Assembly: GCA_046316025.1 (NCBI GenBank)
Contig: JBKCXU010000149.1
Coordinates: 1 to 33,406 of the forward strand
Reading direction: 5' to 3'
Length of the DNA stretch: 33,406 bases
DNA from: Betaproteobacteria bacterium
GTDB taxonomy: Bacteria; Pseudomonadota; Gammaproteobacteria; Burkholderiales; Burkholderiaceae_F
The notes under the pieces are model-generated. The model saw only the letters and a list, made by a program, of their open reading frames with translations. It made no database searches and was not told the origin of the DNA. A program made the position numbers and the translations under genes. Positions 17,353 through 30,604 of this stretch are shown here, in pieces (positions within the stretch are counted from its first letter, which is position 1; each line of letters begins with the position of its first letter).

Positions 17353-17645
17353 TTTGTAGTTCTCCAAAGAGCGAGTGAAAGAACGGAAGTGGGCGTGGCC
17401 TCCCGGCCAGCACGCGGCACCGCCGCGTGGCGCACCGAGGAGTACCGCCTGCGCCGCGCAGCACGCCACGCGCTGGCCCACGGGCCAGCGGCGGTGTGCC
17501 GGTTGAGCGGAAGACGGTTCGTCGGCGCGCGCCGGTGGGGCGCAAGCGCGATGGGCGGTGCCGGGGCCGTTGCGCGGCGCGCTCGTCTGCGCCGCTCGCC
17601 AGTCCCGGCCGAGGCCGGCCCGGTTTGAAGCAAACCCTTTACAGG

Positions 17646-17719
17646 GGTATCCCGCGGGAGTCGAACCCGCGACCGACGGTTTATGAGACCGTTGCTCTAC
17701 CCGACTGAGCTAGGGATGG
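17646..17719 (-). tRNA. tRNA(CAT) Met or Ile2-type. It has a classic D-arm (GCTC AGTCGGGTA GAGC), anticodon loop CTCATAA and T-arm GCGGG TTCGACT CCCGC. The top two acceptor pairs are mismatched, and its 5' end overlaps the CCA of the upstream tRNA-like element by 3 nt.
   Basis: Manual fold of the reverse complement. No CCA encoded. Acceptor is 5' CCATCCC / 3' GGGATAC (5 bp plus 2 terminal mismatches). Confidence 0.5.
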
Positions 17720-17795
17720 TGTCGAAACGGGGAATCGAACCCCGAGGTACGCCGCGGCGAGCCGCGACGCGCGTTTGCCATTTCGCCATTTCGAC
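17718..17795 (-). ncRNA. Anticodon-less tRNA-like element (tRNA pseudogene or Y-RNA-like tRNA mimic). It has a perfect 7-bp acceptor (GTCGAAA/TTTCGAC), discriminator A, encoded CCA, a canonical T-arm CGGGG TTCGATT CCCCG and a type-II-like D-arm GCG AAATGGCAAA CGC. The anticodon arm is replaced by an 8-bp stem with tetraloop (CGTCGCGG CTCG CCGCGGCG).
   Basis: Manual fold. No 5+7+5 anticodon arm is possible. The variable region is too short for a class II tRNA. Confidence 0.5.
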
Positions 17796-18319: not shown

Positions 18320-18883
18320 TCAGTGCAGCCGCAGCCGCGAGTGCTTCGGCAGCCGCGCCGCCAGGTACTCGTACTGATCGGCGAGCACCTTGCGGTTGGC
18401 GAGCAAAAACGCCTCGTTGCGGCAGGGCAGGTACGGCGCCCAGATCGGCAGCATGCGCGCCTCTTCCGGCGTGCGCGCGCCCTTGCGGGCGTTGCAGGCG
18501 CGGCAGGCGGCGAGCAGGTTCATGTACGAGTAGGCACCGCCGCGGCTGGCCGGGACGACGTGATCGACCGTCAGCTGCGACTCGGCAAACCGCTGCGCGC
18601 AGTAGGCACAGGTGAAACGGTCGCGCGCGAAGATCAAGCACCGCTCGACCGCCGGCGTGCGGAATTCCTGCGCACACCATGCGCCGCCGGCGAGCGCGAT
18701 CACGGGCGCAACCTCTAGCGTCGAGATGCGGCCCGTGACCGCGTTACGGCCACCGCGCAGCGTGACGACCGGCGCGCCGATCTCCCACAGCACCAGCCCC
18801 TTGGCGCCGTAGATCGCGGCGTCTTGCACGGAAATCCACCGATGCGCCACGCCGGCGGAGTCGAGTTGCAGTACGGCAACCAT
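18320..18883 (-). CDS. HNH endonuclease (188 aa). Start trimmed to MVAVLQLDSAG with strong SD (GAAAGGAGG).
   Basis: HNH motif CAYCAQRF...LTVDHVVPASRGGAYSYMNLLAACRACNARKG. Confidence 0.8.
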   Translation of the reverse strand: MVAVLQLDSAGVAHRWISVQDAAIYGAKGLVLWEIGAPVVTLRGGRNAVTGRISTLEVAPVIALAGGAWCAQEFRTPAVERCLIFARDRFTCAYCAQRFAESQLTVDHVVPASRGGAYSYMNLLAACRACNARKGARTPEEARMLPIWAPYLPCRNEAFLLANRKVLADQYEYLAARLPKHSRLRLH

Positions 18884-19302: not shown

Positions 19303-20511
19303 TCAGCCCTTGATGCACAGCACCTGTTTGAGCCGGTGCACGACCTCGACCAGATCGGCCTGCGCGGCCATCACGGCGTCGATGTCCTTGTAGGCGCCGG
19401 GGATCTCGTCGAGCACTCCGGCATCCTTGCGGCATTCGACCCCGTCGGTCTGCGCGCGCAGGTCGGCCAGCGAATAGGCACGCTTGGCGGCACCGCGGCT
19501 CATCCGCCGGCCGGCACCGTGCGAGCAGGAGCAGTACGACTCCGCATTGCCCTTGCCGCGCACGATGTAGGAGCGCGCGCCCATGCTGCCGGGGATGATG
19601 CCGAGCTCGCCGGCGCGCGCCGACACCGCACCCTTGCGGGTGATCCACAGCTTCTGGCCGAAGTGTTCTTCGACCGAGCTGTAGTTGTGGTGGCAGTTGA
19701 CCGCGCTGGCGGCAACACCGATCTCGCGCCCGAACTGCGCGCGCAGCGCCTTGAGCACCGCGTGCAGCATTGAGTCGCGGTTCAGCGCCGCGTAGTCCTG
19801 CGCCCAGCGCAAGCCCTCGACGTATTCGTCGAACGGCGCGCTGCCCTCGTCGAGCCAGGCCAGGTCGCGGTCGGGCAGATGGCGCTCCAGCCGCTGTGCC
19901 TCGCGCTGCGCCAGATCGATCGCGGTCTCGCCGATCGTCTTGCCGACGTTGCGCGAACCCGAGTGCAGCATGATCCAGACGCGCTCGGACTCGTCCAGGC
20001 ACAGCTCGATGAAGTGATTGCCGCCGCCCAGGGTGCCGAGCTGCTTCCACACCCGCGCGTGGTCGAACTTGCCGACCCGATCCATGATCCGCAGCCGGCC
20101 GTAGCGCTGGTGCAGCTCGGCGCCGCGCCGCTTGAGCGCGCTGCCAAAGAGCCCGTCGCGGTGCGTGCCGACCGGCCGGTCGTGGGCGGCAAAGCCCACC
20201 GGCACCAGCGACTCGATGGCCGCGCGGATCGCGGCGAGCGAGTCCGGCAGTTCGTCGGCCGTGAGCGCCGTGCGCACCGCGCACATGCCGCAGCCGATGT
20301 CCACGCCCACCGCGGCGGGGATGATCGCGCTGCGGGTCGGGATCACCGAGCCGACGGTGGCGCCCTTGCCCAGATGTACGTCCGGCATGATCGCCACGTG
20401 GCCGGCCACCACCGGCAGCGCCGCCAGGTTGGCGATCTGCGCTACGGCGTCCGGCTCGACCTCCACGCCTTGCGTCCAGGCACGGACGTTCTTCATTGCG
20501 TTGAGGTTCAT
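19303..20511 (-). CDS. rtcB: RNA-splicing ligase RtcB (3'-phosphate/5'-OH RNA ligase)
   Basis: 402 aa. Conserved RtcB motifs (GGGNHFIELCLDE, MLHSGSRNVGK, CSCSHGAGRRMSR). GGAG RBS. Starts 72 nt after tRNA-Ser, the last gene of the array. Confidence 0.92.
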   Translation of the reverse strand: MNLNAMKNVRAWTQGVEVEPDAVAQIANLAALPVVAGHVAIMPDVHLGKGATVGSVIPTRSAIIPAAVGVDIGCGMCAVRTALTADELPDSLAAIRAAIESLVPVGFAAHDRPVGTHRDGLFGSALKRRGAELHQRYGRLRIMDRVGKFDHARVWKQLGTLGGGNHFIELCLDESERVWIMLHSGSRNVGKTIGETAIDLAQREAQRLERHLPDRDLAWLDEGSAPFDEYVEGLRWAQDYAALNRDSMLHAVLKALRAQFGREIGVAASAVNCHHNYSSVEEHFGQKLWITRKGAVSARAGELGIIPGSMGARSYIVRGKGNAESYCSCSHGAGRRMSRGAAKRAYSLADLRAQTDGVECRKDAGVLDEIPGAYKDIDAVMAAQADLVEVVHRLKQVLCIKG

Positions 20512-20582: not shown

Positions 20583-20676
20583 TGGTGGAAGCGGCCGGTC
20601 CCGACCCGGCATGCCGGCGACAATCGCCGACTCTCGCTTAGCAGGCGAGCGGTTTTGCCAATTCACCCACGCTTCC
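20583..20676 (-). tRNA. tRNA-Ser(GCT), class II, 94 nt. T-loop GTCGGGA (G54/G58). CCA encoded.
   Basis: Acceptor GGAAGCG/CGCTTCC. D-arm GGT GAATTGGCAAA ACC. Anticodon arm CTCGC CTGCTAA GCGAG. Long variable hairpin. Confidence 0.7.
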
Positions 20677-20682
20677 GAATGG

Positions 20683-20758
20683 TGGTCAGGGTGGCTGGCT
20701 CCGCCCCAGCCGCCTCCTGCTCCCAAGGCAGGCGCTCTACTCAATGAGCTACACCCTG
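20683..20758 (-). tRNA. tRNA-Pro(TGG). T-loop GGCGGAG (G54/G58). CCA encoded.
   Basis: Acceptor CAGGGTG/CACCCTG. D-arm GCTC ATTGAGTA GAGC. Anticodon arm CCTGC CTTGGGA GCAGG. Confidence 0.65.
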
Positions 20759-20826
20759 ATGCAAGCTCGCCGTCGGAAAGGGGTGTCCCGAGCGCGTTGA
20801 CGGGCGGCACGCAGTGGCCGACTCGA

Positions 20827-20903
20827 TGGGGTGATCGACCGGTTTCGATCCGGTACCCGCGGGGTCACAGTCCGCGATGCAGAGCCACTACACCACGATC
20901 ACC
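20827..20903 (-). tRNA. tRNA-His(GTG) with G-1 and C73-CCA. T-loop ATCGAAA (A54). Unusual D-arm (5-bp TGTAG/CTGCA with 5-nt loop). One C.C mismatch in the anticodon stem.
   Basis: G + GTGATCG...CGATCAC C CCA. Anticodon loop ACTGTGA. Confidence 0.55.
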
Positions 20904-20924
20904 ACAAAACGGTGCGAAAACAAT

Positions 20925-21013
20925 TGGTGCCCTCGGCGCGAGTCGAACGCGCACTGGCCGCACGGGCCTCCTCGTTCTGAGCGAGGTGGGTTTGCCGATT
21001 CCCCTACGAGGGC
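20925..21013 (-). tRNA. tRNA-Leu(CAG), class II, 89 nt. Canonical T-loop TTCGACT. CCA encoded.
   Basis: Acceptor GCCCTCG/CGAGGGC. Anticodon arm CCTCG CTCAGAA CGAGG. Variable GGCC CGTGC GGCC. Confidence 0.8.
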
Positions 21014-21059
21014 TTGAAGTTGAGCGGGGCCGCTTTGCTGGATTGCGACCTCGCGCGGG

Positions 21060-21146
21060 TGGTGCCGGCGGAGGGCCACGATCCCCCACGGCCTTGCGGC
21101 CGCCAGGCTCTCGACCTGGTGCGTCTGCCAATTCCGCCACGCCGGC
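21060..21146 (-). tRNA. tRNA-Leu(GAG), class II, 87 nt. T-loop ATCGTGG (A54/U58). C33 in the anticodon loop TCGAGAG. CCA encoded.
   Basis: Acceptor GCCGGCG/CGCCGGC. D-arm GCG GAATTGGCAGA CGC. Variable GGCC GCAA GGCC. Confidence 0.6.
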
Positions 21147-21152
21147 AATGAA

Positions 21153-21238
21153 TGGACTCGGAGGCCGGACTCGCACCGGCGCGGACTCTCGTCGGCCGGG
21201 TTGCAACCGGCTGCATTCGCCTGCTCTGCCACTCCGAG
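21153..21238 (-). tRNA. tRNA-Cys(GCA)-like, 86 nt, with an unusually long 14-nt variable region. T-loop TGCGAGT (G55). CCA encoded.
   Basis: Acceptor CTCGGAG/CTCCGAG. Anticodon arm GCCGG TTGCAAC CCGGC. Confidence 0.55.
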
Positions 21239-21242
21239 ATGT

Positions 21243-21314
21243 TGGTTGCGGTCGCCGGCGCTGCCCCGGTCCCCGAGCACATGAAGCTCGTGTGCACTGC
21301 TACACCACCCCGCG
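21243..21314 (-). tRNA. tRNA-Met(CAT)-like with initiator-type 5' acceptor CGCGGGG (C1.A72), but 2 further acceptor mismatches and an aberrant T-arm (CCGG GGCAGCG CCGG). CCA encoded. Possibly degenerate.
   Basis: Anticodon arm CGAGC TTCATGT GCTCG is perfect. The rest is irregular. Confidence 0.4.
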
Positions 21315-21321
21315 ATAGAAC

Positions 21322-21397
21322 TGGTCCCTTCGGCAGGTACCGACCCTGCGACACCCCGGCCTTCAACCGGGTGCTCTACCCACTGAGCTACGAAGGG
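21322..21397 (-). tRNA. tRNA-Phe(GAA). T-loop GTCGGTA (G54/G58). Otherwise textbook (D-arm GCTC AGTGGGTA GAGC). CCA encoded.
   Basis: Acceptor CCCTTCG/CGAAGGG. Anticodon arm CCCGG TTGAAGG CCGGG. Confidence 0.75.
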
Positions 21398-21402
21398 GGA
21401 AC

Positions 21403-21477
21403 TGGAGCTTCGCCCCGAACGTGCGCCGGGCTGTCGTCCTTACGAGGGCCGCGCGTCGCTGTCTACGCCGGCGAAGC
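21403..21477 (-). tRNA. tRNA-Thr(CGT)-like. Good acceptor and D-arm. Anticodon stem has 1 mismatch. T-loop CGCACGT is non-canonical. CCA encoded.
   Basis: Acceptor GCTTCGC/GCGAAGC. D-arm GCGT AGACAGCG ACGC. Loop CTCGTAA. Confidence 0.4.
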
Positions 21478-21505
21478 GAATGGGCGCCGCCGCGCGACCA
21501 ACGGG

Positions 21506-21577
21506 CACACCGTGCGGGTATCGATCCCGCCTGCGCAGGTTGAAAGCCTGCTGACCTCACCTGAAGTCGAACGGTGC
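21506..21577 (-). tRNA. tRNA-Glu(TTC). T-loop ATCGATA (A54/U58). No CCA encoded. G1.U72.
   Basis: Anticodon arm GCAGG CTTTCAA CCTGC is perfect. T-stem GCGGG/CCCGC. Confidence 0.55.
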
Positions 21578-21587
21578 GTGTTGCTGT

Positions 21588-21661
21588 CTGCGGCCGCTGG
21601 ACTCGAACCAGCCTGTTCCTTCTTAACAGGGAGGCGTCGTCGCCCGGACGACTCGACCGCA
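21588..21661 (-). tRNA. tRNA-Asn(GTT). Canonical T-loop TTCGAGT. No CCA encoded. One mismatch in the anticodon stem.
   Basis: Acceptor TGCGGTC/GGCCGCA (one G.U). Loop CTGTTAA. Confidence 0.55.
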
Positions 21662-21667
21662 ACATGC

Positions 21668-21743
21668 TGGACCCTCCGCGAGGAATCGAACCTCGATCTC
21701 GACGTTCGTAGCGTCGTGTCCTTGTCCGTTGAACGACGGAGAG
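21668..21743 (-). tRNA. tRNA-Arg(ACG). Canonical T-loop TTCGATT. CCA encoded.
   Basis: Acceptor CTCTCCG/CGGAGGG (one G.U). Anticodon arm CGACG CTACGAA CGTCG is perfect. Confidence 0.75.
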
Positions 21744-21748
21744 AGATT

Positions 21749-21823
21749 TGGCGCCGCTTGCGGGTGCCGACCCCGCGGCCTTCCGCTGGACAGGCGGGTG
21801 CTCTGCCGTTGAGCTAAAGCGGC
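21749..21823 (-). tRNA. tRNA-Asp(GTC). T-loop GTCGGCA (G54/G58). CCA encoded.
   Basis: Acceptor GCCGCTT/AAGCGGC. D-arm GCTC AACGGCA GAGC. Loop CTGTCCA. Confidence 0.65.
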
Positions 21824-21870
21824 GTGGCGCAGAGAGTGCCCTTTGCCAGTTCCGGCATCTCTCCTTGAGC

Positions 21871-21946
21871 TGGTTGGCCGCCTGGGGCTCGAACCCAGAT
21901 CTGCCGGATCAAGAGTCCGGTTCCCTGCCACTCGGGAGCGCGGCCA
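21871..21946 (-). tRNA. tRNA-Lys(CTT). Canonical T-loop TTCGAGC. G8 and G14 instead of U8/A14. CCA encoded.
   Basis: Acceptor TGGCCGC/GCGGCCA is perfect. Anticodon arm CCGGA CTCTTGA TCCGG. Confidence 0.65.
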
Positions 21947-21952
21947 GCGCAT

Positions 21953-22024
21953 TGGAGGACCGACCGAGTAACGCTCTCGGCGTGCGGTGCTTGCAAGGCA
22001 CGGCTGCACCCTTGTGCTCGGCCC
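21953..22024 (-). tRNA. tRNA-Ala(TGC)-like, short (72 nt). 4-bp D-stem with 4-nt loop. T-loop AGCGTTA (A54/U58). CCA encoded.
   Basis: Acceptor GGGCCGA/TCGGTCC. Anticodon GTGC CTTGCAA GCAC. Confidence 0.4.
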
Positions 22025-22030
22025 GTGTTC

Positions 22031-22120
22031 TGGTGCGTCAGGCTGGGCATGATCCAGCAGCGGCCCCGGTGGGCTCCTGCTTTACAGGCAGGCGGGTTCA
22101 GCCAGCTTCCCTACTGACGC
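22031..22120 (-). tRNA. tRNA-Tyr(GTA), class II, 90 nt. T-loop ATCATGC (A54/U58). CCA encoded.
   Basis: Acceptor GCGTCAG/CTGACGC. Anticodon arm CCTGC CTGTAAA GCAGG. Variable GCCC ACCG GGGC. Confidence 0.65.
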
Positions 22121-22161
22121 GTGCCATGCGCCAACGCACGGCCCGGCCATGCGCTGGCGAA

Positions 22162-22237
22162 TGGTGCGGGCGCCCGGGAACGATCCGAGGCCTCGACGTT
22201 GGCAACGTCGCGTGCTGCCGATTGACACCACGCCCGC
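22162..22237 (-). tRNA. tRNA-Gly(GCC), first gene of the array. T-loop ATCGTTC (A54/U58). CCA encoded.
   Basis: Acceptor GCGGGCG/CGCCCGC. Anticodon arm CGACG TTGCCAA CGTCG is perfect. Confidence 0.7.
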
Positions 22238-22388
22238 ATTGGCCGGGCGGCGGCGCGGCACGGCGAGGCAAACCACAACCTCGCCGCCCGCGGTGCTCCG
22301 CCGCCCGGCCCGTTGGCAATCCAAGTTGTTAAAGAGCTCCCGCCCGTTGGCGGGGTGCGCCCGTTGGCGCGTACGGCAAAGACCACTG

Positions 22389-22430
22389 CAAAAACAAAAA
22401 GCCCGGAGGACCATGAACGTCGCTCCGGGC
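22389..22430 (-). terminator. Rho-independent terminator (GCCCGGAG-14 nt loop-CTCCGGGC followed by TTTTTGTTTTT on the minus strand)
   Basis: Read directly. It separates the CII-like gene region from the tRNA array. Confidence 0.6.
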
Positions 22431-22662
22431 TTGGGTGCCTGTTGGCCGAGGGTCGGCTAGGTGCCGGTCCCTCCGCCCGGATCGACGGTGCGCGGATCGC
22501 TATTGACCCACTGCCCGCGCGACAACGCCGGCTCATGGCCGAGCGCCGGCGCCGCGCCCCGGGGGCAGCGTGTCGCGATCGATAGCGATAAATAGCGGGT
22601 CATGGTCGAAAGAGTTGCAGTGCTCTGTGCGGTGCGCGCCGGCACTCCGGCGAACGAGAAAG

Positions 22663-22682
22663 AATGCTAAAGCAGTTTAGCG
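22663..22682. promoter_or_regulatory. Palindromic operator-like site AATGCTAAAGCAGTTTAGCG (GCTAAA-N4-TTTAGC), copy 1, just downstream of the CII-like ORF
   Basis: 18/20 identical to 23169-23188. Perfect 6-4-6 inverted repeat. Confidence 0.45.
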
Positions 22683-22688
22683 CCGAGG

Positions 22689-23162
22689 TCAACGCACGCG
22701 CCGCAGCGCTGTTGCGCGGGCGCCACCCCGCGTCGTGGCCGGCGGGCGCGCGGCGGGCGCCGACTTGAGCAGCTCCGCGTGCAGCGCGTCCAGCAGCCGC
22801 TCCTTGGCGAGCTGCTTGTTGATGCGGAACAGCGTGAGGAACAACTGCACCGCGTTGCGTTCTTCGTCGTCGCCGTACGGCACCGCCGGCGGCAGCACCT
22901 TGACCGGCAGCCGCTCGGCGTCGCTCGCGTCGAGGCTGCCCTGCGGCATCCGGCACTTGCTTTCGATCTGGCGCGCCAGCTTCTCGCCAATGTGGCGGTG
23001 CTTGGACTTGAGCTGGCTCCAGTGCGCCGGGTTGACGTCGATCAGCCGCGCGAAGCTCGTCTCCGCGGTCCGCGCCCGCTCGTCGCCCTCCGCGCGCCAG
23101 CGGCGCACGAAGTGATCGCGCAGCAGCAGCGCGTTTTGCAGGCGGATGTCGGCGAGGTCCAT
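22689..23162 (-). CDS. Phage CII-like / Cro-CI-type HTH transcriptional regulator (157 aa)
   Basis: ARLIDVNPAHWSQLKSKHRHIGEKLARQIE resembles the CII-type HTH (lambda CII GVDKSQISRWKRDWIPKF). Weak family assignment. Confidence 0.4.
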   Translation of the reverse strand: MDLADIRLQNALLLRDHFVRRWRAEGDERARTAETSFARLIDVNPAHWSQLKSKHRHIGEKLARQIESKCRMPQGSLDASDAERLPVKVLPPAVPYGDDEERNAVQLFLTLFRINKQLAKERLLDALHAELLKSAPAARPPATTRGGARATALRRVR

Positions 23163-23306: not shown

Positions 23307-23330
23307 GGGAGAGGGGCTTTACAGAGCTGG
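23307..23330. repeat. Short GC palindrome GCCTCTCCC-GGG-GGGAGAGGGGC just past the hipA remnant, same flavour as the repeat family
   Basis: Read directly. Confidence 0.4.
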
Positions 23331-23364
23331 CCGGCGCAACCCGGGTGCCGCACGGCAAATCGAA

Positions 23365-24694
23365 TCACCCCATCTGCGCCCGCAGCGATGGGCTGGCCAC
23401 GTCTTCGATCTGCCGAAAGGCTGCCGCGGCCTGGCGTGCCAAATCCTCCGACACGCCCAGGCGTCGAACCGCGCGCGCCATTGCCCCACGACCGCCCAGA
23501 TCGAGCTCACGATCCCTAACGCCTCGCGCCGCGATAAGCCAAACGCCTGGCAGCGCGTCAGCGCGTTGTCGATCGTCGCCGCGCGGCCGTCGGTGCCGAC
23601 ACCGAGGTGCAATGTGCGCTCGTAACTCGCGCTCGGCCGGGGGACGACGTCGTACAACGGGCTCAGCCGCCAGCCCCCGAGGTGCGTGTCGAAGACGAAG
23701 CCGTGGTTGCGCAGATGGTCGTCGTCGTTGCTGACGAGCACGTTGAACACCATCCGCGAGAACAACTCGCGCAAGTCGGCGCGGATCGCGCTGCGGTGGC
23801 AGTAGCGCTCGATCGCGCGCGCCAGGTCGGCGTAGCTGCGGGCGATCGACTCCGACTCATCGCAGCCGACCAGCGTCAAGCCGCTGACGAAGCCGAGCCG
23901 TTTCTCCACCCGGCCCGGTGCGCGCGCGGTGGCGCCAATCTCCGCCCAGGCCACGGCCTCGCCCCTGGCCGCCCAGTAGCGATCGAAGCGCCGCACCAGC
24001 AGCACGCGGCGCACGCCCACATCCTTGATGCCCACCTGCGGGACGGTGAGCCCGCACTCGCGCGCCAGCCGCAAGGTGGCCCACTCCAGGTCGGTCACGC
24101 TGTAACGCTGTAGCGATCCGTGCGGGAGGGAAACTTGGCCACCCAGCCCACGCCGGCATCGTCCACCACGGCGGCCTTGGGCCTTGCGCCGCCCAGCGAC
24201 ACCCCGGCCCCCAACAGTGCCGCCAGTTCCTCCGGCACCGGTCGCCCGGCCTCGACGGCCTCTGCCGCATCGAGCAGGCCTTGCAGTTGCAGGACGGCTC
24301 CGGCGACGCTGTGCGGCGGGGCGTCCAGCGTTGCGCGGATGTCCAACGCCCCCACGCGGTTGCTGCCCGCTGCGAGCAGGTAGGTCGACTCCGGCAAACC
24401 GTTTGCCTCGGCCTTCACGCGGGCTTCGATCACGCGGCGGCCCCAGGCATCGGGCGCGGCATCGCGAATGCCGCCAAACAGCGTCAACCCCGGCTGCGGA
24501 AAAACGTAGCTCTCCGCGCCCGGCAGCGCGAGGCTCACCGGGTCCACCGCCAGCGCATCGGGCCGTTGCCGACACTTGCTGCCCTACGCAAACGAAGACG
24601 CCGACAGCGTGGTGCCGGCTTCGGTCGGCTCCAGCAATCCCGCCGGCACCCAATCGCCGTCGAGGTGGGCAAAGACCGCGAGCTTCGTGGCCAT
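23365..24694 (-). pseudogene. hipA: hipA (HipA-family Ser/Thr kinase toxin) pseudogene with three independent lesions
   Basis: N-terminus MATKLAVFAHLDGDWVPAGLLEPTEAG...SSFA is stopped by TAG at 24584-24586 where the conserved Tyr is expected. A perfect 8-bp tandem duplication ACGCTGTA ACGCTGTA at 24097-24112 shifts the frame between the HipA N-domain (…GWVAKFPSRTDRYSVT) and HipA_C (…FNVLVSNDDDHLRNHGFVF…). A -1 shift in a G-run near 23456-23458 is needed to recover the native C-terminus FDAWGVSEDLARQAAAAFRQIEDVA. Confidence 0.8.
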
Positions 24695-25035
24695 CAAAAG
24701 TCCAGTTCCTGGCGCTCGGCCGCGGTCAGTCCGCGCACGCGCCGGCCGCGCTCGCGCTGCGTCAGCGCCGCCAGCGACGGCTCGTCTTCCGCGAGCAAAG
24801 CCTTCAACTCCACGCCCGCGGCAAGCGCCTCCAGGTAGCGCAGCACCCGCCCCAGCGCCACACCGGGATCGCCGCTTTCCAGCCGGTACGCCGTGTTGCG
24901 CGAGATGCCCGCACGCAACGCCGCCTCGCTCTGCTTGAGCCGGCGCGCATGACGCAGCCGCGCCAACAGCGCCCCAATGCGCTTGGCCTCGGCGAGGCGG
25001 CTCTGCGGGACGACCGCGGACTGATCGACTTTCAT
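24694..25035 (-). CDS. hipB: HipB-like HTH_XRE antitoxin, apparently intact. Stop overlaps the hipA ATG (TGATG).
   Basis: MKVDQSAVVPQSRLAEAKRIGALLARLRHARRLKQSEAALRAGISRNTAYRLESGD is an XRE HTH. Direct repeats GATCGAC-N6-GATCGAC and further TGATCGAT motifs lie across and upstream of the start at 25020-25090. Confidence 0.75.
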   Translation of the reverse strand: MKVDQSAVVPQSRLAEAKRIGALLARLRHARRLKQSEAALRAGISRNTAYRLESGDPGVALGRVLRYLEALAAGVELKALLAEDEPSLAALTQRERGRRVRGLTAAERQELDF

Positions 25036-25134
25036 GATCGACAAAAAATGCTTTAACGATTTAATGATCGATTATTGATCCATTGATTTCGCGACTATCC
25101 ACGACCAGCGCCGGTCGGTGATTGGCCCTACTGG

Positions 25135-26778
25135 CTAGTCTTGCGCCGGCCTTTGCGCGGCCAGATCGGCGGCAATCAGCCGGAACTGCTCCAGCGCCGC
25201 CTCCAGGTCTTCGACGATCTCTTGCGCGATCGCCTCGGGCGGGGGCAGGTTGTCGCTGTCGGCGAGGCTCGCATCCTTGAGCCAGAAGATGTCGAGGCTC
25301 GCCTTGTCGCGGGCGATGAGTTCGTCGTAGCTGTAGGCGCGCCAGCGGCCGTTTGCGCCGCGCTCGCCCCCACCCCCACCCTCCCCCGCAGGCGGGGGAG
25401 GGAGTAACCCCCTCCCCTGCGAAGCGGGGGAGGGCTGGGGTGGGGGCGTGGGTCCTCCATCCCGGTGAGGCTCATGGTCAGCGTTCGGGCGGTGCCCCGC
25501 TTCGTCAAACCAAGTCGCCCTGCGCTCGTGCCGGTTGGCCGGGTTGTACAGCCGCACAAACTCGTCCAGGTCCGCCCGCTTGAGCGGGTTGGTCTTCAGC
25601 GTGTAGTGCTTGTTGGTGCGCAGGTCGTAGATCCACAGTTGACGCGTGCTGGGCGTGTCCGACGCCGGCCGCTTGTCGAAGAACAGCACGTTCGCCTTGA
25701 CCCCTTGCGCGTAGAACAGGCCCGTCGGCAGCCGTAGCAGCGTATGCACGTCGCACTCGTGCAGCAGCTTGCGGCGGATGGTCTCACCGGCGCCGCCTTC
25801 GAAGAGCACGTTGTCCGGCACCACCACCGCTGCGCGGCCGTGGGTCTTGAGCAGCGTCTTGATGTGCTGCACGAAGTTCAGTTGCTTGTTGCTGGTGGTG
25901 GCCCAGAAGTCGTCGCGCTCGACGATGTCTTTCTCGGTCGTCGTGCGGCCGTCTTCGCCGACGATCATCGTGCTGGACTTCTTGCCGAACGGCGGATTGG
26001 CCAAAACAACATCAAATCGTTCGCCAGGGTCGGCCGCCAGCGCATCGGCCACGCGCACCGGCACGTTCTTGTCCGAGCCGATGCCGTGCAGCAGCAGGTT
26101 CATCGCGCACACGCGCGCGGTGGCTTGCACCAGCTCCCAGCCGCGAAATGCGCTCTCCTTGAGGTGGCGCTTCTCTTCGCGGGTGAGGTTGGGGTTGTGC
26201 TGCGCGATGGTGTTGTGCGCGGTGAAGAGAAAGCCGCCGGTGCCGCAGGCCGGGTCGCACACCGTCTCGCCGGGGCGGGGGGCGATGCAATCGACCATCG
26301 CCTGGATCAGCGCGCGCGGCGTGAAGTACTGGCCGGCGCCGGACTTGATGTCCTGCGCGTTGCGCTCCAACAGGCCTTCGTAGGCATCGCCTTTGACGTC
26401 GGTGCCCAGCGCCGACCAGTCTTCGGCGTCGATCAGATCGACGATCACCCGCCGCAGCTTGGCCGGGTCCTGAAACTTGTTCTGCGCCTTGGCGAAGATC
26501 AGCCCCAGCGTGCCGGCGCGCTTGCCCAGCTCTTCCAGCGTGTGGCGGTAGTGGTCGAACAGATCATCGCCGTCCTTGGCCAGCAGCGCAGGCCAGGCGT
26601 AGGCCGCGGGCACGGGGCTCGGCTGGTTGTGCGGCGGGCGGCTGCGCTCGTCGGCCATCTTGAGGAACAGCAGGTAGGTGAGCTGCTCGACATAGTCGCC
26701 ATAGCTCATCCCGTCGTCGCGCAGGACGTTGCAGTAGTTCCAGAGCTTTTGGACGAGGGTGGCAGCGTTCATCGTCAC
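25135..26778 (-). CDS. hsdM: Type I restriction-modification N6-adenine DNA methyltransferase HsdM, with an in-frame ~45-aa insertion derived from the palindromic repeat element
   Basis: 547 aa. HsdM_N plus the NPPFG catalytic motif. The segment GHRPNADHEPHRDGGPTPPPQPSPASQGRGLLPPPPAGEGGGGGERGA sits between the conserved ...TWFDE and NGRWRAYSYDELIARDKASLDIFWLKD. Confidence 0.88.
   Translation of the reverse strand: MTMNAATLVQKLWNYCNVLRDDGMSYGDYVEQLTYLLFLKMADERSRPPHNQPSPVPAAYAWPALLAKDGDDLFDHYRHTLEELGKRAGTLGLIFAKAQNKFQDPAKLRRVIVDLIDAEDWSALGTDVKGDAYEGLLERNAQDIKSGAGQYFTPRALIQAMVDCIAPRPGETVCDPACGTGGFLFTAHNTIAQHNPNLTREEKRHLKESAFRGWELVQATARVCAMNLLLHGIGSDKNVPVRVADALAADPGERFDVVLANPPFGKKSSTMIVGEDGRTTTEKDIVERDDFWATTSNKQLNFVQHIKTLLKTHGRAAVVVPDNVLFEGGAGETIRRKLLHECDVHTLLRLPTGLFYAQGVKANVLFFDKRPASDTPSTRQLWIYDLRTNKHYTLKTNPLKRADLDEFVRLYNPANRHERRATWFDEAGHRPNADHEPHRDGGPTPPPQPSPASQGRGLLPPPPAGEGGGGGERGANGRWRAYSYDELIARDKASLDIFWLKDASLADSDNLPPPEAIAQEIVEDLEAALEQFRLIAADLAAQRPAQD
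25364..25448. repeat. Copy of the CCCCTCCCC...GGGGAGGG palindromic repeat inserted in-frame within hsdM. Right arm 25408-25448 is identical over 40 nt to 82-121.
   Basis: Read directly. Confidence 0.8.
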
Positions 26779-28232
26779 GCCCAGTAGGGGATGTACTCGG
26801 CGAACTTCCTTCCACTGCCCATGTCCTTGCGCCTGATCCGGCCGGCCTCTACCGCGTCACTGATGAGGTTGGTGATCTGGTTACGGGTCTTGTCATGAAG
26901 GTGAAATCGCCGACGTAGCGTCGTATTCGTCAGGGTCTTGCTCGACAGATACTGCAGCACGGCGTGCTGGTAGCACGCCTCGATCCGCTCGGATGTAGAC
27001 ATATCGGCGAACTTGCGCGGCGCGCCGATGGTCACGCGGAAGGCGTTGTCCTGCGGCGCCAGCACGAGGGGCGGCAGTCCGAACAACTCGATCGCCGTCA
27101 CGACTTTCTGGAAGCCGGTGCCGCGTTCCTCGCAGATCCGGAAGCGCCGGAACGACGAGGCCAGTTTCTCGTTGCGCGACTCCGGCGTCGTGCCGATCAG
27201 CCGGTCGGGCTTCTTGCCCGGCAGCAATGCTCCCGGACTGGTGATCTCGATGCGGTCGTCGTAGATCTCGACCATCGGGCCGGCACCGCCGACCGAAAAG
27301 TCCTGGTGGATCAGCGCGTTCGCAATCAGCTCGCGCAATGCAATCTCGGGGTACATCGCCACCTCGGTCCGCAGCGCCTGCTGGATGACCTCGGAATGCG
27401 GCAGCACACGCTTCAGGTGCCCGATCAGGCCTTCGAAGCCAACCGCGTAGCCGCGCTGGCCCGCAAGCTCGTCGACGGTGTTGACCTTGTTCGTGCCGCG
27501 GTAGCGGATCACCCGGATACGCTTCCGGTCCAGCGACGGGAACTCATCCAGCTTCTTCGCCGCAGCGACCGCCCCGAAGTTCGTGATGTAGAAACCGCGT
27601 CCCTCGGCCACCGCGAGGCCCTCGGCGAGAAGCCAGGCTTCCAGGTTGTCGTCGCCTTCTGGCAGCGGGCGTTGCAGCAAGGCTGCGATGGCCTCCAGAT
27701 CCAGCAGACGCACGACCTCCGACAGGTCGATGAGCGGCGATGCGCGCAGTTCTTCCCAGCGCGGCGACGCGCTGTTGAGCATCAAGGCACCGACCTCCTG
27801 CCGCGACGCCTTGCGCGTCGTGCCGCCGGAGCGAATCCAGGCCTCTTCGATACCTTTGCCGCGCCGATGCACCGGCTTCACCGCCTGCTCGGGCACCCGG
27901 ACGAGCAGCACCGAGACCCCCCGATACTCCACCGCCGCATGGTCGATGGCCACAGGGGGATCGACGGCGTCGCGGCCCAGGTTGGCCAGGGTGTTCGCTA
28001 CCCCGGCAATGTCCTGAGCATCGATGCCCAGCGGCATGCCGTCGTCGTTGACGCCGAAGACCAGCGTGCCACCGTTGGGATGGTTGGCAAACGCCATCAG
28101 GTGCTCGGCCAGCCGTTCCTTTCTGTCCGAGAGCCGGGCCTTCCAGTCGATCTCGTTGGCCTCGTGCGGCAGCGGGCTCAGGCTCTCCTCCAGAGCCTGC
28201 ATCGCCGCCTTCACCCAGTGCTTCGTGGCCAT
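26775..28232 (-). CDS. COG2865-type protein (AlbA_2/Schlafen-like N-domain plus HATPase_c_4, C-terminal winged helix). These are commonly embedded in type I R-M loci. ATGA overlap with hsdM.
   Basis: 485 aa. Domain recognition from the translation is moderate. C-terminus ...NLISDAVEAGRIRRKDMGSGRKFAEYIPYWA. Confidence 0.65.
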   Translation of the reverse strand: MATKHWVKAAMQALEESLSPLPHEANEIDWKARLSDRKERLAEHLMAFANHPNGGTLVFGVNDDGMPLGIDAQDIAGVANTLANLGRDAVDPPVAIDHAAVEYRGVSVLLVRVPEQAVKPVHRRGKGIEEAWIRSGGTTRKASRQEVGALMLNSASPRWEELRASPLIDLSEVVRLLDLEAIAALLQRPLPEGDDNLEAWLLAEGLAVAEGRGFYITNFGAVAAAKKLDEFPSLDRKRIRVIRYRGTNKVNTVDELAGQRGYAVGFEGLIGHLKRVLPHSEVIQQALRTEVAMYPEIALRELIANALIHQDFSVGGAGPMVEIYDDRIEITSPGALLPGKKPDRLIGTTPESRNEKLASSFRRFRICEERGTGFQKVVTAIELFGLPPLVLAPQDNAFRVTIGAPRKFADMSTSERIEACYQHAVLQYLSSKTLTNTTLRRRFHLHDKTRNQITNLISDAVEAGRIRRKDMGSGRKFAEYIPYWA

Positions 28233-28394
28233 TTGATAACAAGTCGTTGATTTAAGAAGGAGTTTCAGGCTTTTCCGGATTCAGATGTGATGCGGCCTTC
28301 CGCTCGACATCGCCGCCCCAACCGCCGGCAGACTCTCCGCGTGTGATGCCAAGCCATTGACTTGAAAGGCTCGATTGTCGCCGTCCGGTTTCGG

Positions 28395-28545
28395 ATGTGA
28401 AAGGCCGGTAAAGATCAGCCCCAGCGCGCCGTCGCGCTTGCCCAGCTCTTCGAGCGTGTGGCGGTAGCGGTCGAACAGCGCATCGTCGTCGCGCAGGACG
28501 TTGCAGTAGCTCCAAGGCTGTTGGAACGAGGGTGGAGGTGTTCAC
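28395..28545 (-). pseudogene. Truncated, diverged 5' fragment of a second hsdM (hsdM'). It aligns to hsdM codons ~1-75 but has a 1-nt insertion and a ~135-bp internal deletion at TCG microhomology.
   Basis: Nucleotide alignment to 26480-26775 (…gtcgaacagCGCATCGTCGTCGCGCAGGACGTTGCAGTAG… versus hsdM …gtcgaacagATCATCGccgtcc…cccgTCGTCGCGCAGGACGTTGCAGTAG…). Confidence 0.7.
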
Positions 28546-28795
28546 GGCGCGGGCGAGGCTGGGTGCTTGCAGGGATGGAGCGGAACGAGAGGTTGTTAGC
28601 GCACACTTGCGTGGAACGCATTGCCCATTGAAGCCGCCCACCAGCCCTGGCCGCGCGCAGCCACGGAGCGCGGCCATTGGTAGAAGGCGCCCACCCGCTT
28701 TGTTAGCCGTCGTCTTCCGATAACACCACTAACAAAGCCAAGCTCTTGTTGTGTAAAAGCTTTTACTCGTTCCATTGATTGTTTGGGCGGTCGAT

Positions 28796-29161
28796 TCATT
28801 GTTTTTCTTGCTCGATCAGAACCCAAAGCGGCGCCTGCCGCGTTCCCGCGTTGCGGATCGCCTTGCCCGACAGGGAAGAAATCAGGTTGTGCACTTTGCC
28901 CAACTTCTGCGCCGGCGTCAGCACCTCCGGCAGCTTGTCGAGCAGCAGCCGGTCGATGTCGCCGCGCGAGACCGGGCCGTGCGTGCGCACCAACTCGACG
29001 ATCATGTCCCGGTAGTAGCGGCTGTCGAAGCCGCGGTTGCGGATGTGCTGCGCTTTCTGCCCCGTGGCGGCCGCCACCGGGCCGGCCACCAGCAGATTGG
29101 GGTAGCGCCCCTCCACCAACCCCGCCGCGCGCAGCCGCTTGGCGCCCGCGGCTCGGGGCAC
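28796..29161 (-). pseudogene. C-terminal fragment (121 aa) of a second, paralogous COG2865-family gene. It is a 5'-truncated remnant.
   Basis: ...KLGKVHNLISSLSGKAIRNAGTRQAPLWVL aligns with the C-terminal winged helix of the full copy (…TNLISDAVEAGRIRRKDMGSGRKFAEYIPY). Confidence 0.55.
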
Positions 29162-29188
29162 CCCCCGTCAAGTCGCCCACGGCCAAGC

Positions 29189-29641
29189 CTACGGTACCCG
29201 CATCCCGGTCTGCGGGTTCAACAACTCCAACGCAAGCGTGTCGCGCAGCGGAAGAAACGCTGCCAAGTCCGTGGACATGACGGTCAAGCCCGCCACCCGC
29301 GCAGTCGCTGCAATCCATAGGTCGTTGTGATCGTGCTGTATCGCGAGGCCCTTCGCCTTGGCGTGCGACTTGAGCCGAGCCCACTCCTCGTGAATCTCGC
29401 GTCGCCCAATGGGCAGGACGACGTGTTCGTCGATCACCTCGTCCAGGAGCTTCCGCCGCCTTTCTCCCCAGCTCTGCGAAAAAGCCAGCAACTCTGCGAC
29501 CGAAACCTCGCACAGAGCCGGCCGGAACGGGGAACTCCTCAATCCGAACTGTCGGTCGATGGCTTCCGCTTGCGCGCTGCCTTCGCGCGTCGCGAACAAG
29601 ACCACGTTGGTGTCGAGCAGGTACGGCAGCGGCGCGCTCAT
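29189..29641 (-). CDS. vapC: PIN-domain ribonuclease toxin (VapC-like)
   Basis: 150 aa. YLLDTNVVLFA...ELLAFS...NDLWIAATARVAGLTVMSTD acidic PIN quartet pattern. Confidence 0.8.
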   Translation of the reverse strand: MSAPLPYLLDTNVVLFATREGSAQAEAIDRQFGLRSSPFRPALCEVSVAELLAFSQSWGERRRKLLDEVIDEHVVLPIGRREIHEEWARLKSHAKAKGLAIQHDHNDLWIAATARVAGLTVMSTDLAAFLPLRDTLALELLNPQTGMRVP

Positions 29642-29647
29642 TCGGCG

Positions 29648-30604
29648 TCAACTCATTGCTTCGACAGCCGCCAGGAACTCTTCGTCGGTTTCCTCGGCCG
29701 GAATACGGCCAAGGATCTTCTCGTAGGCCGACCGCTCGCCGATCTTCAGCCGCAGCAAGCGACTCGTATCGGTCGCCACAATCGCAGCGGGAACGCGCCT
29801 GAAGTACGCATCGCCCTTGGCCGCTGCGGCAATTGCCGAAGCATCCACGCGCAGCAGCGAACCAGAGGGCCTGAATACCGCCTTCCCCTCAATCACCACT
29901 TCGCGATTGAAAAGATCCCTGAGCGTCTCGATCGACCCTTCCCCCTCCCACAGCGCGATGACAACCGCGCCGGGTTCGACGGCGATCTTCATCAAACCTT
30001 GACTCGCCCCCAACACATCCAAGCGGCCGACGATCCGCACTCGCTGAACTGGCGGGATCGCGGCGGATAACTCCGAAGCCGCCTGCGTCACCATCCGATC
30101 CAGAAATGCGGGAACGTCGACGCCCTGCTCGACGAGGGCAATACGATCCAAGTGGCGCGGGGCGACGAACAGCTTGCGATACCGGCTGAATCTCTTCAGC
30201 AATCCCGTATCGAAGCGCGAGCTGTCGCCGCGGCGCGCGGCCACGTCGCGCAGCGACGCGGCAAGCAGATCGAACGCGGTTTGGTCTGCCCGCGGGCCGT
30301 CCTCCCAGAGAGGTCGCTGCCGGAACGCGTCGGGCGCCGCGTCGCCGAGCGTCGGCAACTCGAAGTGCAACAGGGTGGTGTTATCGCCGGTCGCGCTATG
30401 GCCGAGGAAGCGCGTATCAGCTGCGGCTTGCAACTGAGCGGGCACTCGCCCGCGAGCCCGGCTGGAATGCAGAAAGCCCATGCGCACGCTGTCGAGCATG
30501 GTGTCGCGCAGTCCGGTCAGGATCGGCCCGATCAACTCGGGTCTGGGCCGCGGCCCGAGGCCCTCGCGCGCTTCGAGGCGAAAGCTACGTTCGACAGTAT
30601 TCAC
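29648..30604 (-). CDS. Hypothetical protein (318 aa, no recognisable domain). Translationally coupled on both sides: GTG start overlaps the hsdS stop (GTGA), and its stop is 6 nt before the vapC ATG. Acidic C-terminus.
   Basis: Long high-GC3 ORF in frame. Start assigned to GTG VNTVERSF... The upstream part of the ORF overlaps hsdS out of frame. Confidence 0.5.
   Translation of the reverse strand: MNTVERSFRLEAREGLGPRPRPELIGPILTGLRDTMLDSVRMGFLHSSRARGRVPAQLQAAADTRFLGHSATGDNTTLLHFELPTLGDAAPDAFRQRPLWEDGPRADQTAFDLLAASLRDVAARRGDSSRFDTGLLKRFSRYRKLFVAPRHLDRIALVEQGVDVPAFLDRMVTQAASELSAAIPPVQRVRIVGRLDVLGASQGLMKIAVEPGAVVIALWEGEGSIETLRDLFNREVVIEGKAVFRPSGSLLRVDASAIAAAAKGDAYFRRVPAAIVATDTSRLLRLKIGERSAYEKILGRIPAEETDEEFLAAVEAMS

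Follow-up and report, generated by a model that had tools for sequence, protein, structure and literature searches.

Coordinated exchange of tRNA elbow nucleotides in a compact tRNA gene array linked to an RtcB repair module

The window described here is a 33,406-nucleotide contig from a Burkholderiales bacterium (JBKCXU010000149.1, assembly GCA_046316025.1), and its most unusual feature is an array of 17 tRNA genes that occupies 1655 bp of the minus strand (20583-22237) beside a gene for the RNA ligase RtcB. The array includes 16 tRNAs and one initiator-like tRNA(CAU), at a density of about 10 genes per kb. U54, U55, C56, and A58 are invariants of cytoplasmic elongator tRNAs (review PMC7912444). 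In 12 of the 17 array genes (71%) the U54/A58 combination has been replaced. Across the array and its relatives, the two positions change together, and the elbow nucleotides and their D-loop partners form a natural series of coordinated exchanges in tRNAs that are otherwise under clear purifying selection. The array itself is of a known kind, and the dense, covarying recoding of the elbow is, as far as found, the new element. The literature searched contained no account of bacterial tRNAs that naturally carry A54/U58 or A18/G55, and T-loop variation is unmentioned in the searched literature on long tRNA arrays, or L-arrays (including PMC8421152).

The canonical U54/A58 combination occurs in five tRNAs of the window (Lys, Arg, Asn, Leu-CAG, and Cys, the last with G55). 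Four carry A54/U58 (Gly, Tyr, Leu-GAG, and Ala), five carry G54/G58 (Asp, Phe, Ser, Pro, and the CAU gene), and two carry A54/A58 (His and Glu); Thr has C54. The T-loop list of the preliminary description agrees with this tally for every tRNA that it lists except Glu, which had been listed as A54/U58 and is A54/A58 like His. Such loops are far less frequent elsewhere: combinations other than U54/A58 are found in 34/203 other bacterial array tRNAs (Fisher p=5e-6 against 12/17 in the window), in 7/152 tRNAs of viral RtcB-linked arrays, and in 1/68 non-array tRNAs of the fetched loci. The proportion is about 45% in clade-B relatives of the array, 5/27 in Methylibium PM1, 1/23 in Variovorax, 1/30 in Mycobacterium intracellulare, and 1/25 in the Anabaena trn operon (a G55/A18 type), and it is about 5-20% in other arrays overall. 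Elbow variation is thus a general but infrequent property of mobile tRNA arrays, and the window array is an extreme case.

Relatives of RtcB were gathered from genomes, metagenomes, and assemblies, and their loci, labeled with L-numbers (L001, L084, L164-L172, etc.), were used for comparison. Between the window and L084, positions 54 and 58 are both changed in six tRNAs: from U/A to A/U in Gly, Tyr, and Leu-GAG, from U/A to G/G in Asp and Ser, and from C/A to G/G in Phe. Glu differs at position 54 only. Comparison with outgroup arrays identifies U/A (C/A for Phe) as the ancestral state, so the window clade has the derived ones. At least 15 independent 54/58 switches are distributed across the related arrays, and the same tRNA may be U/A, A/A, or A/U depending on the lineage (Leu-GAG, Gly-UCC, and Pro-CGG), a mixture that points to A/A as an intermediate on the way from U/A to A/U. 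Two purine-purine combinations, G54-G58 and G54-A58, have reportedly also arisen in the laboratory: Zagryadskaya and colleagues (2003) are reported to have recovered both by in vivo selection in E. coli suppressor tRNAs, where they were working substitutes for U54-A58. The G54/G58 loops of the window array match these replacements.

The swap or replacement of the 54/58 pair had been proposed from the window by itself, and it extends to the 220 unique tRNAs of the arrays, whose combinations are almost only UA (177), AU (16), AA (13), GG (9), and CA (3), with a single GA and a single UC. U58 is found exclusively with A54, and G58 exclusively with G54 (Fisher 8e-17 and 4e-15); orthologous arrays had been proposed as a check for unconstrained drift at these positions, and the pattern in them is instead this restricted one. 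A formal count of 150 T-arms gives 118 UA, 13 AU, and 19 other combinations, with no one-sided standard pairs, and the T-stem pairs of the same alignment covary as expected. The scoring of the tRNA caller ARAGORN would be expected to favor single departures, and therefore the dominance of double changes is not regarded as a detection artefact.

Other elbow positions change in step with this pair. U60 is present in 132/177 U/A loops and in 0/42 of the AU, GG, AA, CA, and GA loops; the single U54/C58 loop retains U60. Among tRNAs with G55, the D-loop has AG in place of G18G19 in 18/22 and AGG in the remaining 4, whereas tRNAs with U55 have GG in 258/264. Cys tRNAs with A56 carry U at the position of G19, the window Cys (C56) carries G, and the difference reads as a change of the 19-56 pair from G-C to U-A. 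The surrounding positions are strongly conserved (G53-C61 in 145/150, a purine at 57 in 220/220, and C56 in 216/220), and several variant loops (His, Pro-UGG, Ala, and Thr-GGU) are long-lived across clades. The contacts that hold the L-shape thus appear to be preserved with different letters.

Arrays orthologous to that of the window are found at several depths of divergence. The nearest named relatives of its RtcB are from Burkholderiales metagenome-assembled genomes (MAGs). In L164 and L165, whose RtcB is 98.5% identical to that of the window, the T-loops are the same, and the array recurs in independent ENA, Logan, and JGI assemblies, with identical T-loops in those that are 99% related. 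More distant loci (L084, L166/L167, and L169/L170, with RtcB about 82% identical; L171 and L172, about 79-80%) have collinear arrays of up to about 27 genes, and the collinearity of the window and L084 arrays is evident by blastn. The L084 and L169 arrays contain about 25-27 genes, and because its syntenic relatives are longer, the window array is viewed as a reduced member of the group. In a comparison of the acceptor, anticodon, and T stems of 16 well-defined window tRNAs with their L084 orthologues, 193 of 272 pairs are identical, 63 are doubly compensated, 7 are changed on one side, and 9 are unpaired in at least one sequence, some of these 9 being parsing artefacts.

Individual tRNAs illustrate both the exchange and the conservation. 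The loops of the window are derived relative to TTCGAnT in Gly(GCC) orthologues (L084, L169, and L171), TTCAA-type loops in Tyr, TTCGATY in Glu, TTCGAGT or TTCGATC in Ser, and CTCGATA or TTCGATA in Phe. Orthologues of Asp have TTCGAAT, but ATCGTTG in L172, and Leu-GAG is UA in L084, AU in L166, and AA in L169. Cys orthologues have TGAGAGT (A56) with CATT or CATC in the D-loop. The His loop is unchanged in L084, L166, L169, and L171 while its stems change in a compensatory manner, and the Pro(UGG) loop is identical in L084, L166, and L169, accompanied by 3 compensatory anticodon-stem pairs. The T-loop of Ala is likewise unchanged in L084, where acceptor and T-stem changes are compensatory and pairs 6-67 and 7-66 are exchanged. 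The Thr acceptor stem (GCTTCGC/GCGAAGC) differs from that of L084 (GCTGCGC/GCGCAGC) by compensatory changes, and the anticodon stem of the CAU gene is fully compensatory in the same comparison.

The preliminary description had also noted C33 in Leu-GAG and G8/G14 in Lys. Both are genuine and are shared with distant orthologues: C33 is found in every clade, and G8/G14 is kept in five arrays (the window, L084, L166, L134, and L141). Covariation of positions 8 and 14 over all arrays is confounded by variable D-stem length, and only the Lys case is clean. Inherited oddities and compensated stems together therefore argue decisively against pseudogene erosion. As judged from these comparisons, the array genes are almost certainly selected, structurally intact tRNAs, in accord with the earlier proposal that they are functional variants rather than products of decay; the compensatory stem changes, the covariation of positions 55 and 56 with their D-loop partners, and the constancy of the His and Pro loops all support it. 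A side observation concerns the related arrays, several of which include tRNA-Leu genes of only 76-79 nt whose D-loop, GGGAATCnGGCATACC, is distinctive and in which the long variable arm is absent (L005 7010-7168, L081 70-148, L166 4324-4402, L169 4207-4369, and L171 3746-3824). A Leu tRNA without the variable arm is unusual among bacteria. The rtcB-proximal end of clade-B arrays also has a conserved 70-codon open reading frame (ORF) among the tRNA genes (L084 5600-5812, L166 5599-5811, and L169 5597-5809), which is absent from the window array.

At its default threshold, ARAGORN identifies 14 tRNAs on the minus strand within 20583-22237, plus two at 17644-17795. A relaxed threshold adds Ala(UGC), and Thr(CGU) and tRNA(CAU) fold, by manual and comparative folding, when given the correct acceptor strands. 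Once all 17 genes are in place, they are separated by 41, 6, 6, 47, 5, 5, 7, 25, 5, 8, 4, 6, 46, 22, 68, and 6 nt. The range is thus 4-68 nt with 10 of the 16 at 4-8 nt, which upholds the initial account of closely packed minus-strand genes; the array is non-periodic and lacks a repeated unit. The spacers obtained with 17 genes fit that account, and Ala, Thr, and the CAU gene are therefore argued to be real members. The Rfam tRNA model (RF00005) scores 11 of the 17 genes above its gathering score of 29 bits, at 34.5-56.2 bits. Glu and Asn have weak matches to the related tRNA-Sec model only, below its threshold, and Leu-GAG, Ala, Thr, and CAU are unreported by the Rfam scan.

The anticodons span 15 amino acids, and Leu alone is duplicated. 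Identity elements, as read off the sequence, are present in Ala (G3:U70), His (G-1:C73), Cys (U73), Asp (G73), and Leu, Tyr, Pro, and Phe (A73); by E. coli rules, position 73 is atypical in Gly (A), Arg (U), and Ser (A). Anticodon loops are also atypical in Asp (C37), Lys(CUU) (G37), and Leu-GAG (C33); position 37 of Asp orthologues is U or G. Not all stems are perfect, contrary to what had first been stated for the acceptor and anticodon stems. The D-arm of Ala is atypical (GCAC-AAGG-GTGC, without the 8-9 linker) and its 27-43 pair is mismatched, and Thr has one anticodon-stem mismatch. The CAU gene has a C1xA72 mismatch between its 5' CGCGGGG and 3' GCAACCA ends and two mismatches in the lower acceptor stem. 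Both ends are like those of the E. coli initiator tRNA. L084 has CAC as the anticodon of this gene, where the window, L164, L166, and L169 have CAU. An encoded CCA, ascribed to most of the genes, is missing from Asn and Glu. The positions of all features are collected in Table 1.

Table 1. Positions and properties of the array genes and of the module in which they lie.
Feature	Position	Strand	Details
Putative helix-turn-helix (HTH) transcriptional regulator, 157 aa	22689..23162	-	phage-type regulators in PHROG, E=4e-8
Leader, ~450 nt between regulator and array	22400..22700	-	arrangement conserved in 9 loci
tRNA-Gly(GCC)	22162..22237	-	ATCGTTC, A54/U58; ARAGORN; Rfam 45.1 bits
tRNA-Tyr(GUA)	22031..22120	-	long variable arm; ATCATGC, A54/U58; ARAGORN; Rfam 49.3 bits
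tRNA-Ala(UGC)	21953..22024	-	AGCGTTA, A54/G55/U58; relaxed ARAGORN
tRNA-Lys(CUU)	21871..21946	-	canonical TTCGAGC; G8/G14, G37; ARAGORN; Rfam 34.5 bits
tRNA-Asp(GUC)	21749..21823	-	GTCGGCA, G54/G58; C37; ARAGORN; Rfam 50.5 bits
tRNA-Arg(ACG)	21668..21743	-	canonical TTCGATT; ARAGORN; Rfam 47.9 bits
tRNA-Asn(GUU)	21586..21662	-	canonical TTCGAGT; no encoded CCA; ARAGORN
tRNA-Glu(UUC)	21503..21578	-	ATCGATA, A54/A58; 3' end GCCC instead of CCA; ARAGORN
tRNA-Thr(CGU)	21403..21477	-	CGCACGT, C54/G55; AG in D-loop; manual fold
tRNA-Phe(GAA)	21322..21397	-	GTCGGTA, G54/G58; ARAGORN; Rfam 53.9 bits
Initiator-like tRNA(CAU)	21243..21313	-	GGCAGCG, G54/G55/G58; manual/comparative fold
tRNA-Cys(GCA)	21153..21238	-	long variable arm; TGCGAGT, G55; D-loop ...CAGG...; ARAGORN; Rfam 45.8 bits
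tRNA-Leu(GAG)	21060..21146	-	ATCGTGG, A54/U58; C33; ARAGORN
tRNA-Leu(CAG)	20925..21013	-	canonical TTCGACT; ARAGORN; Rfam 56.2 bits
tRNA-His(GUG)	20827..20903	-	encoded G-1 opposite C73; ATCGAAA, A54/A58/A60; ARAGORN; Rfam 41.8 bits
tRNA-Pro(UGG)	20683..20758	-	GGCGGAG, G54/G55/G58; ARAGORN; Rfam 49.6 bits
tRNA-Ser(GCU)	20583..20676	-	GTCGGGA, G54/G58; ARAGORN; Rfam 46.7 bits
RtcB RNA ligase	19303..20511	-	Pfam PF01139, E=3.6e-126; 70 nt downstream of last tRNA
HNH endonuclease	18320..18883	-	Pfam HNH_5/HNH; 187 aa in public assemblies (L001); longest ORF to 19063
Tandem tRNA-like pair	17644..17795	-	ARAGORN; second unit Rfam tRNA 54.6 bits, weak YrlA match 24.5 bits
SPFH/Band-7 (slipin-like) protein	16210..17352	-	Pfam PF01145; conserved in L164, L166, L169, L171, L172
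RlaP, RNA-ligase-associated Pol-beta nucleotidyltransferase	15255..16073	-	Pfam PF10127, E=1.7e-88

The array is part of a module that runs along the minus strand from 23162 down to 15255, in the order HTH regulator, leader, array, RtcB, HNH endonuclease, tRNA-like RNA, SPFH protein, and RlaP. Homologues of the regulator (151-157 aa) occupy the equivalent site in L084, L164, L166, L169, and L172, and rtcB adjoins the array in all related loci. The leader has a sigma70-like promoter (22692-22664; TTGACM-N17-TAKCAT) that has an internal palindrome, GCTAAA...TTTAGC. It contains an ORF of 48 codons in the window (22603-22457, ending ...DPGGGTGT) and of 48-83 codons over nine loci, in which conservation is limited to a C-terminal (D/N)PGG(G/A) motif, and an intrinsic terminator lies 40-60 nt past the ORF (about 22430-22400 in the window). 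Loci with this leader include L084 (2418-2800), L166, L169, L171, L172, L004, and L168; in L168 the leader stands directly upstream of rtcB, without an array. The codons of the DPGG motif (GAUCCGGG) show complementarity to the terminator's 5' arm (CCCGGAUC), and therefore the motif may be conserved at the level of the RNA, as an anti-terminator. Both anti-terminator strands are invariant across loci and give no covariation signal. Our hypothesis is that the leader could be a classical leader-peptide attenuator that senses slowed translation, in which a ribosome at the end of the leader ORF would mask the anti-terminator. Between the leader terminator and the first tRNA, GCCAACGGGC is repeated as three exact direct copies (22308-22368, minus strand); the triple copies are confined to the window clade (the window and L164) and are absent in L084, L166, L169, L171, and L172.

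Downstream of rtcB, the HNH endonuclease is called as a 187-aa protein in public assemblies, and an exact-protein lookup of the longer 247-aa ORF found no record. Relatives of this endonuclease lie beside tRNA arrays in three phyla (by tblastn: Methylibium, Variovorax, Polaromonas, Nostoc/Anabaena, and Mycobacterium plasmids). In a 9-locus alignment, the tandem tRNA-like RNA keeps its place between the HNH and SPFH genes. The D and T arms of its second unit are invariant, the acceptor stem is short and lacks CCA, and the "anticodon" loop varies above a compensating stem; by these characters it looks like a structural tRNA mimic and not a decoder. The RNA resembles mimics of the Y-RNA-like type, but its assignment to YrlA fails (24.5 bits against a gathering score of 69 for RF02553), and no TROVE/Ro gene is found in the window. 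Counterparts of the tandem RNA occur at L004 8471-8616, L005 8786-8933, L081 2706-2849, L169 8512-8657, and L053 4233-4375, and single tRNA-like elements are found about 1.5 kb upstream of rtcB in Burkholderia (L024, L028, L030, L044, L059, and L066). RlaP adds nucleotides at damaged RNA 3' ends and aids in restoring repaired tRNA (PMC12776372). None of the genes of the module encodes a modification enzyme.

The window is bacterial chromosome of about 68% GC, with ubiB, ubiJ-like, ubiE, and type IV pilus genes, and the module is inserted in a defense island (HipBA, type I restriction-modification (R-M), and a PIN toxin) of a Burkholderiales chromosome. Its neighbors vary: pil genes in the window and L164, IclR/glmS in L166, Prok-E2/JAB in L169, a tRNA-synthetase-like gene in L171, and LigD in L172. 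This patchy distribution at differing insertion sites points to horizontal transfer of a mobile unit. An origin from a phage or prophage was considered and rejected: phage blastn matched rtcB only (64-69% identity), the IMG/VR scan found no RtcB relative above 61% identity, and the flanks are chromosomal. Plasmids gave no near-matches beyond rtcB.

The defense and toxin cluster lies beyond the regulator (23319-25044 and 25135-33401). It includes a HipA-like kinase with an HTH protein, hsdM (25135-26778) and hsdR (31932-33401) of the type I R-M system, an SLFN_AlbA_2/HATPase_c_4 protein (26775-28232) embedded in that system, a PIN/VapC-like toxin (29189-29641), and unannotated ORFs at 28252-28677, 28796-29161, and 29648-31261. 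Schlafen and VapC proteins of bacteria act as tRNases, but no link to the array was established. The embedded Schlafen-like protein was rejected as the relevant nuclease, as the characterized bacterial Schlafen cuts the anticodon arm and not the T-loop (PMC13056530). Related HNH-linked arrays are also present in cultured isolates, at 243-248 kb of plasmid RPME01 of Methylibium petroleiphilum PM1 (L173) and on plasmid 3 of Variovorax sp. RA8 (L174). These arrays have 23-27 tRNAs, a few A54/A58, A54/U58, and C54/A58 loops, and embedded genes for HD-domain, AlkB, or RNA ligase proteins.

The array is, by its layout and distribution, a horizontally transferred L-array, a spare tRNA set kept functional by selection. 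By homology with the Anabaena system and from its leader, the module very probably serves as a stress-induced unit of tRNA supply and repair. The array would be co-expressed with rtcB upon damage to translation or to the tRNA pool, as in the Anabaena regulon and likely through the leader attenuator, and it would supply replacement tRNAs while RtcB and RlaP mend those that have been cut. The variant tRNAs may reasonably be expected to lack m5U54 and to present an altered face to T-loop readers and nucleases. A T-loop tRNase is known from Burkholderia: CdiA-CT(E479), whose cleavage site in the loop lies between the conserved T and Psi (PMC9086364). A recoded elbow could hide the canonical T54-Psi55-C56...A58 face from T-loop-specific enzymes, above all from T-loop-cleaving toxins of this kind. 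Such recoding would be the elbow-level counterpart of the anticodon-loop escape of phage tRNAs. On this analogy, adaptive escape from elbow-reading factors is slightly favored over drift as the cause of the recoding, tentatively and at less than an even chance. The combined explanation, in which an L-array with a repair module supplies tRNAs under stress and the recoded elbows provide escape, is the best available overall and is evenly balanced between being right and wrong. It is doubtful, though conceivable, that RtcB-linked L-arrays hold a distinct class of elbow-recoded tRNAs that still translate, are invisible to T-loop toxins or to modification-dependent effectors, and are triggered by an attenuator.

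Several observations weigh against the best explanation, and some of them are what neutral compensatory drift would produce. If redundant, rarely expressed tRNAs let their elbow pairs wander within the same geometry without benefit, 54/58 should evolve like any base pair, and double changes at 54/58 (6/16, window against L084) are indeed not significantly more frequent than at stem pairs (63/272; Fisher p=0.23). The branch of the window lineage is long, its RtcB being about 18% diverged from that of all other clades, and drift would have built up most of the changes along it. Unrelated L-arrays and viral arrays show these variants at a sporadic level (about 5-20%), and A54/A58 appears as an alternative in tRNAs that are elsewhere A54/U58 (Leu-GAG, Gly-UCC, and Pro-CGG), fitting stepwise change. 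Drift accounts less well for the direction and persistence of the changes: those on the window branch all leave U/A or C/A and none return, and the variant loops, once formed, are long held (His, Pro-UGG, Ala, and Thr-GGU). Nor is there a general relaxation, as 56, 57, and the 53-61 pair are strongly conserved, and the enrichment of the window (12/17) over other arrays is significant (p=5e-6). Drift is a serious possibility, if well short of an even chance. Escape is further weakened by the five tRNAs that are still canonical, so that the set is not uniformly "protected", and by the absence of any T-loop nuclease among those features found in the window. The defective acceptor stem of the CAU gene also counts against the best explanation, and whether this gene functions as a tRNA is uncertain. 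Rfam scores are low for bacterial tRNAs, an effect attributed to the unusual loops, and 4 genes are unscored. The host is an uncultured MAG.

Other explanations are considerably less probable. The elbows might avoid or alter modification (TrmA m5U54, TruB Psi55, and TrmH Gm18), or elbow-reading quality control or processing, and so define a biochemically distinct tRNA pool, differing for instance in stability or turnover, for reasons unrelated to nucleases. The changed positions 54, 55, 58, and 18 do carry conserved elbow modifications (review PMC7912444), and G55 with A18, as well as A or G at 54, would remove TruB and TrmA substrates; this idea is nevertheless improbable, given five canonical genes and a module without a modification enzyme. 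A role as decoys or sponges for tRNA toxins, or as ligands or substrates of RtcB, RlaP, or the regulator, was suggested for Anabaena array tRNAs in its decoy form (PMC8421152), and it is compatible with the poor acceptor stem of the CAU gene and with the non-decoding tRNA-like RNAs of the module. Decoys, however, should retain the canonical face that toxins recognize and not shed it, would not be expected to have anticodons for 15 amino acids without duplication except Leu, and would not need identity elements (G3:U70, G-1:C73, and Cys U73) and anticodon loops that are conserved across clades; we regard such a role as more improbable still. Random erosion of a dead array is very improbable: low or missing Rfam scores, two genes without CCA, and one bad acceptor stem would suit decaying pseudogenes, but 63 compensatory against 9 broken stem pairs, strict covariation at 54/58, 60, 18/55, and 19/56, and T-loops that are identical in 99%-related assemblies from independent samples would not. 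Two further candidates were set aside. T-loop variation is not a shield of the array DNA against its own HNH endonuclease, as the canonical sequence is kept in five genes of the array and presumably in every tRNA gene of the host, and GC pressure is not the cause, as A/U swaps leave GC content unchanged.

Whatever its cause, the series provides natural rules for tolerated elbows: UA, AU, GG, AA, and CA at 54/58, with a linked position 60, and the pairs A18/G55 and U19/A56. It also ties elbow recoding to a tRNA-repair and stress module, and it makes the resistance of elbow-recoded tRNAs to T-loop nucleases and modification enzymes testable, as culturable carriers exist (Methylibium petroleiphilum PM1 with plasmid RPME01, and Variovorax plasmids). 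If escape is correct, the array would add a new layer to the arms race over tRNA, distinct from anticodon-loop escape, and would be a natural demonstration that "invariant" elbow nucleotides can be replaced. If the changes are neutral, the identity of the "invariant" elbow bases would be imposed by factors besides folding.

Among known systems, L-arrays are the closest. They are long, horizontally spread tRNA arrays with a neighboring HNH endonuclease and frequent rtcB linkage (PMC8421152), defined by Tran et al. (2016, PMC4758250) as having 20 or more tRNA genes at a density of 2 or more per kb; with 17 genes, the window array is under the 20-gene cut-off. Like the window array, they have same-strand tRNA genes, very short spacers, no periodicity, a patchy distribution, and varied insertion sites, with rtcB nearby and an HNH endonuclease of the same family (tblastn to the HNH of the Nostoc and Mycobacterium arrays). 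They differ in their elbows, since 71% are non-canonical in the window as compared to 1/25 in the Anabaena and 1/30 in the Mycobacterium array. In Anabaena, 23/26 array tRNAs are aminoacylated and found in polysomes, and the array is induced by translational stress (PMC8421152). The TrcR regulon there includes the trn array, rtcB, an HNH endonuclease, a slipin (SPFH) protein, and acetyltransferases (PMC10272220). The trn/TrcR system of Anabaena PCC 7120 thus shares with the window a tRNA array, rtcB, HNH, and slipin/SPFH, co-regulated in the one and physically clustered in the other. It belongs to another phylum, however, and its regulator is the ribbon-helix-helix protein TrcR rather than a predicted HTH protein; control in the window probably also includes the leader-ORF/terminator attenuator, and the T-loops of the Anabaena array are almost wholly canonical.

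Phage tRNAs are the nearest parallel for escape. They are reported to evade anticodon nucleases through changes in the anticodon loop (van den Berg et al. 2023, PMC10264068), and other cases of escape from tRNA-directed defense include PARIS and the T5 tRNA-Lys (PMC11464382) and a retron and the T5 tRNA-Tyr (PMC11555353). As in the window, these are supernumerary tRNAs of mobile elements that deviate at sites read by nucleases, retain decoding, and are linked to RNA repair enzymes, and the anticodon-loop oddities of the array (Asp, Lys, and Leu-GAG) resemble deviations reported for phage tRNAs. Unlike in phage escape tRNAs, the deviations of the window lie at the elbow (T-loop and D-loop) and not in the anticodon loop only, and the element is chromosomal, with a best IMG/VR RtcB identity of 61%. 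A54, A58, and A60 form the T-loop pattern of the eukaryotic initiator tRNA (PMC7912444), which recurs in the His (ATCGAAA) and Glu (ATCGATA) tRNAs of the window, although these are bacterial elongators. Operons for RtcB repair (rtcBA with RtcR, rsr-yrlBA-rtcBA with YrlA, and RtcB-RlaP) likewise combine RtcB, RlaP, and tRNA-like non-coding RNA; the module of the window differs from them in lacking RtcA, RtcR, and Ro/Rsr and in having a tRNA array between the leader and rtcB.

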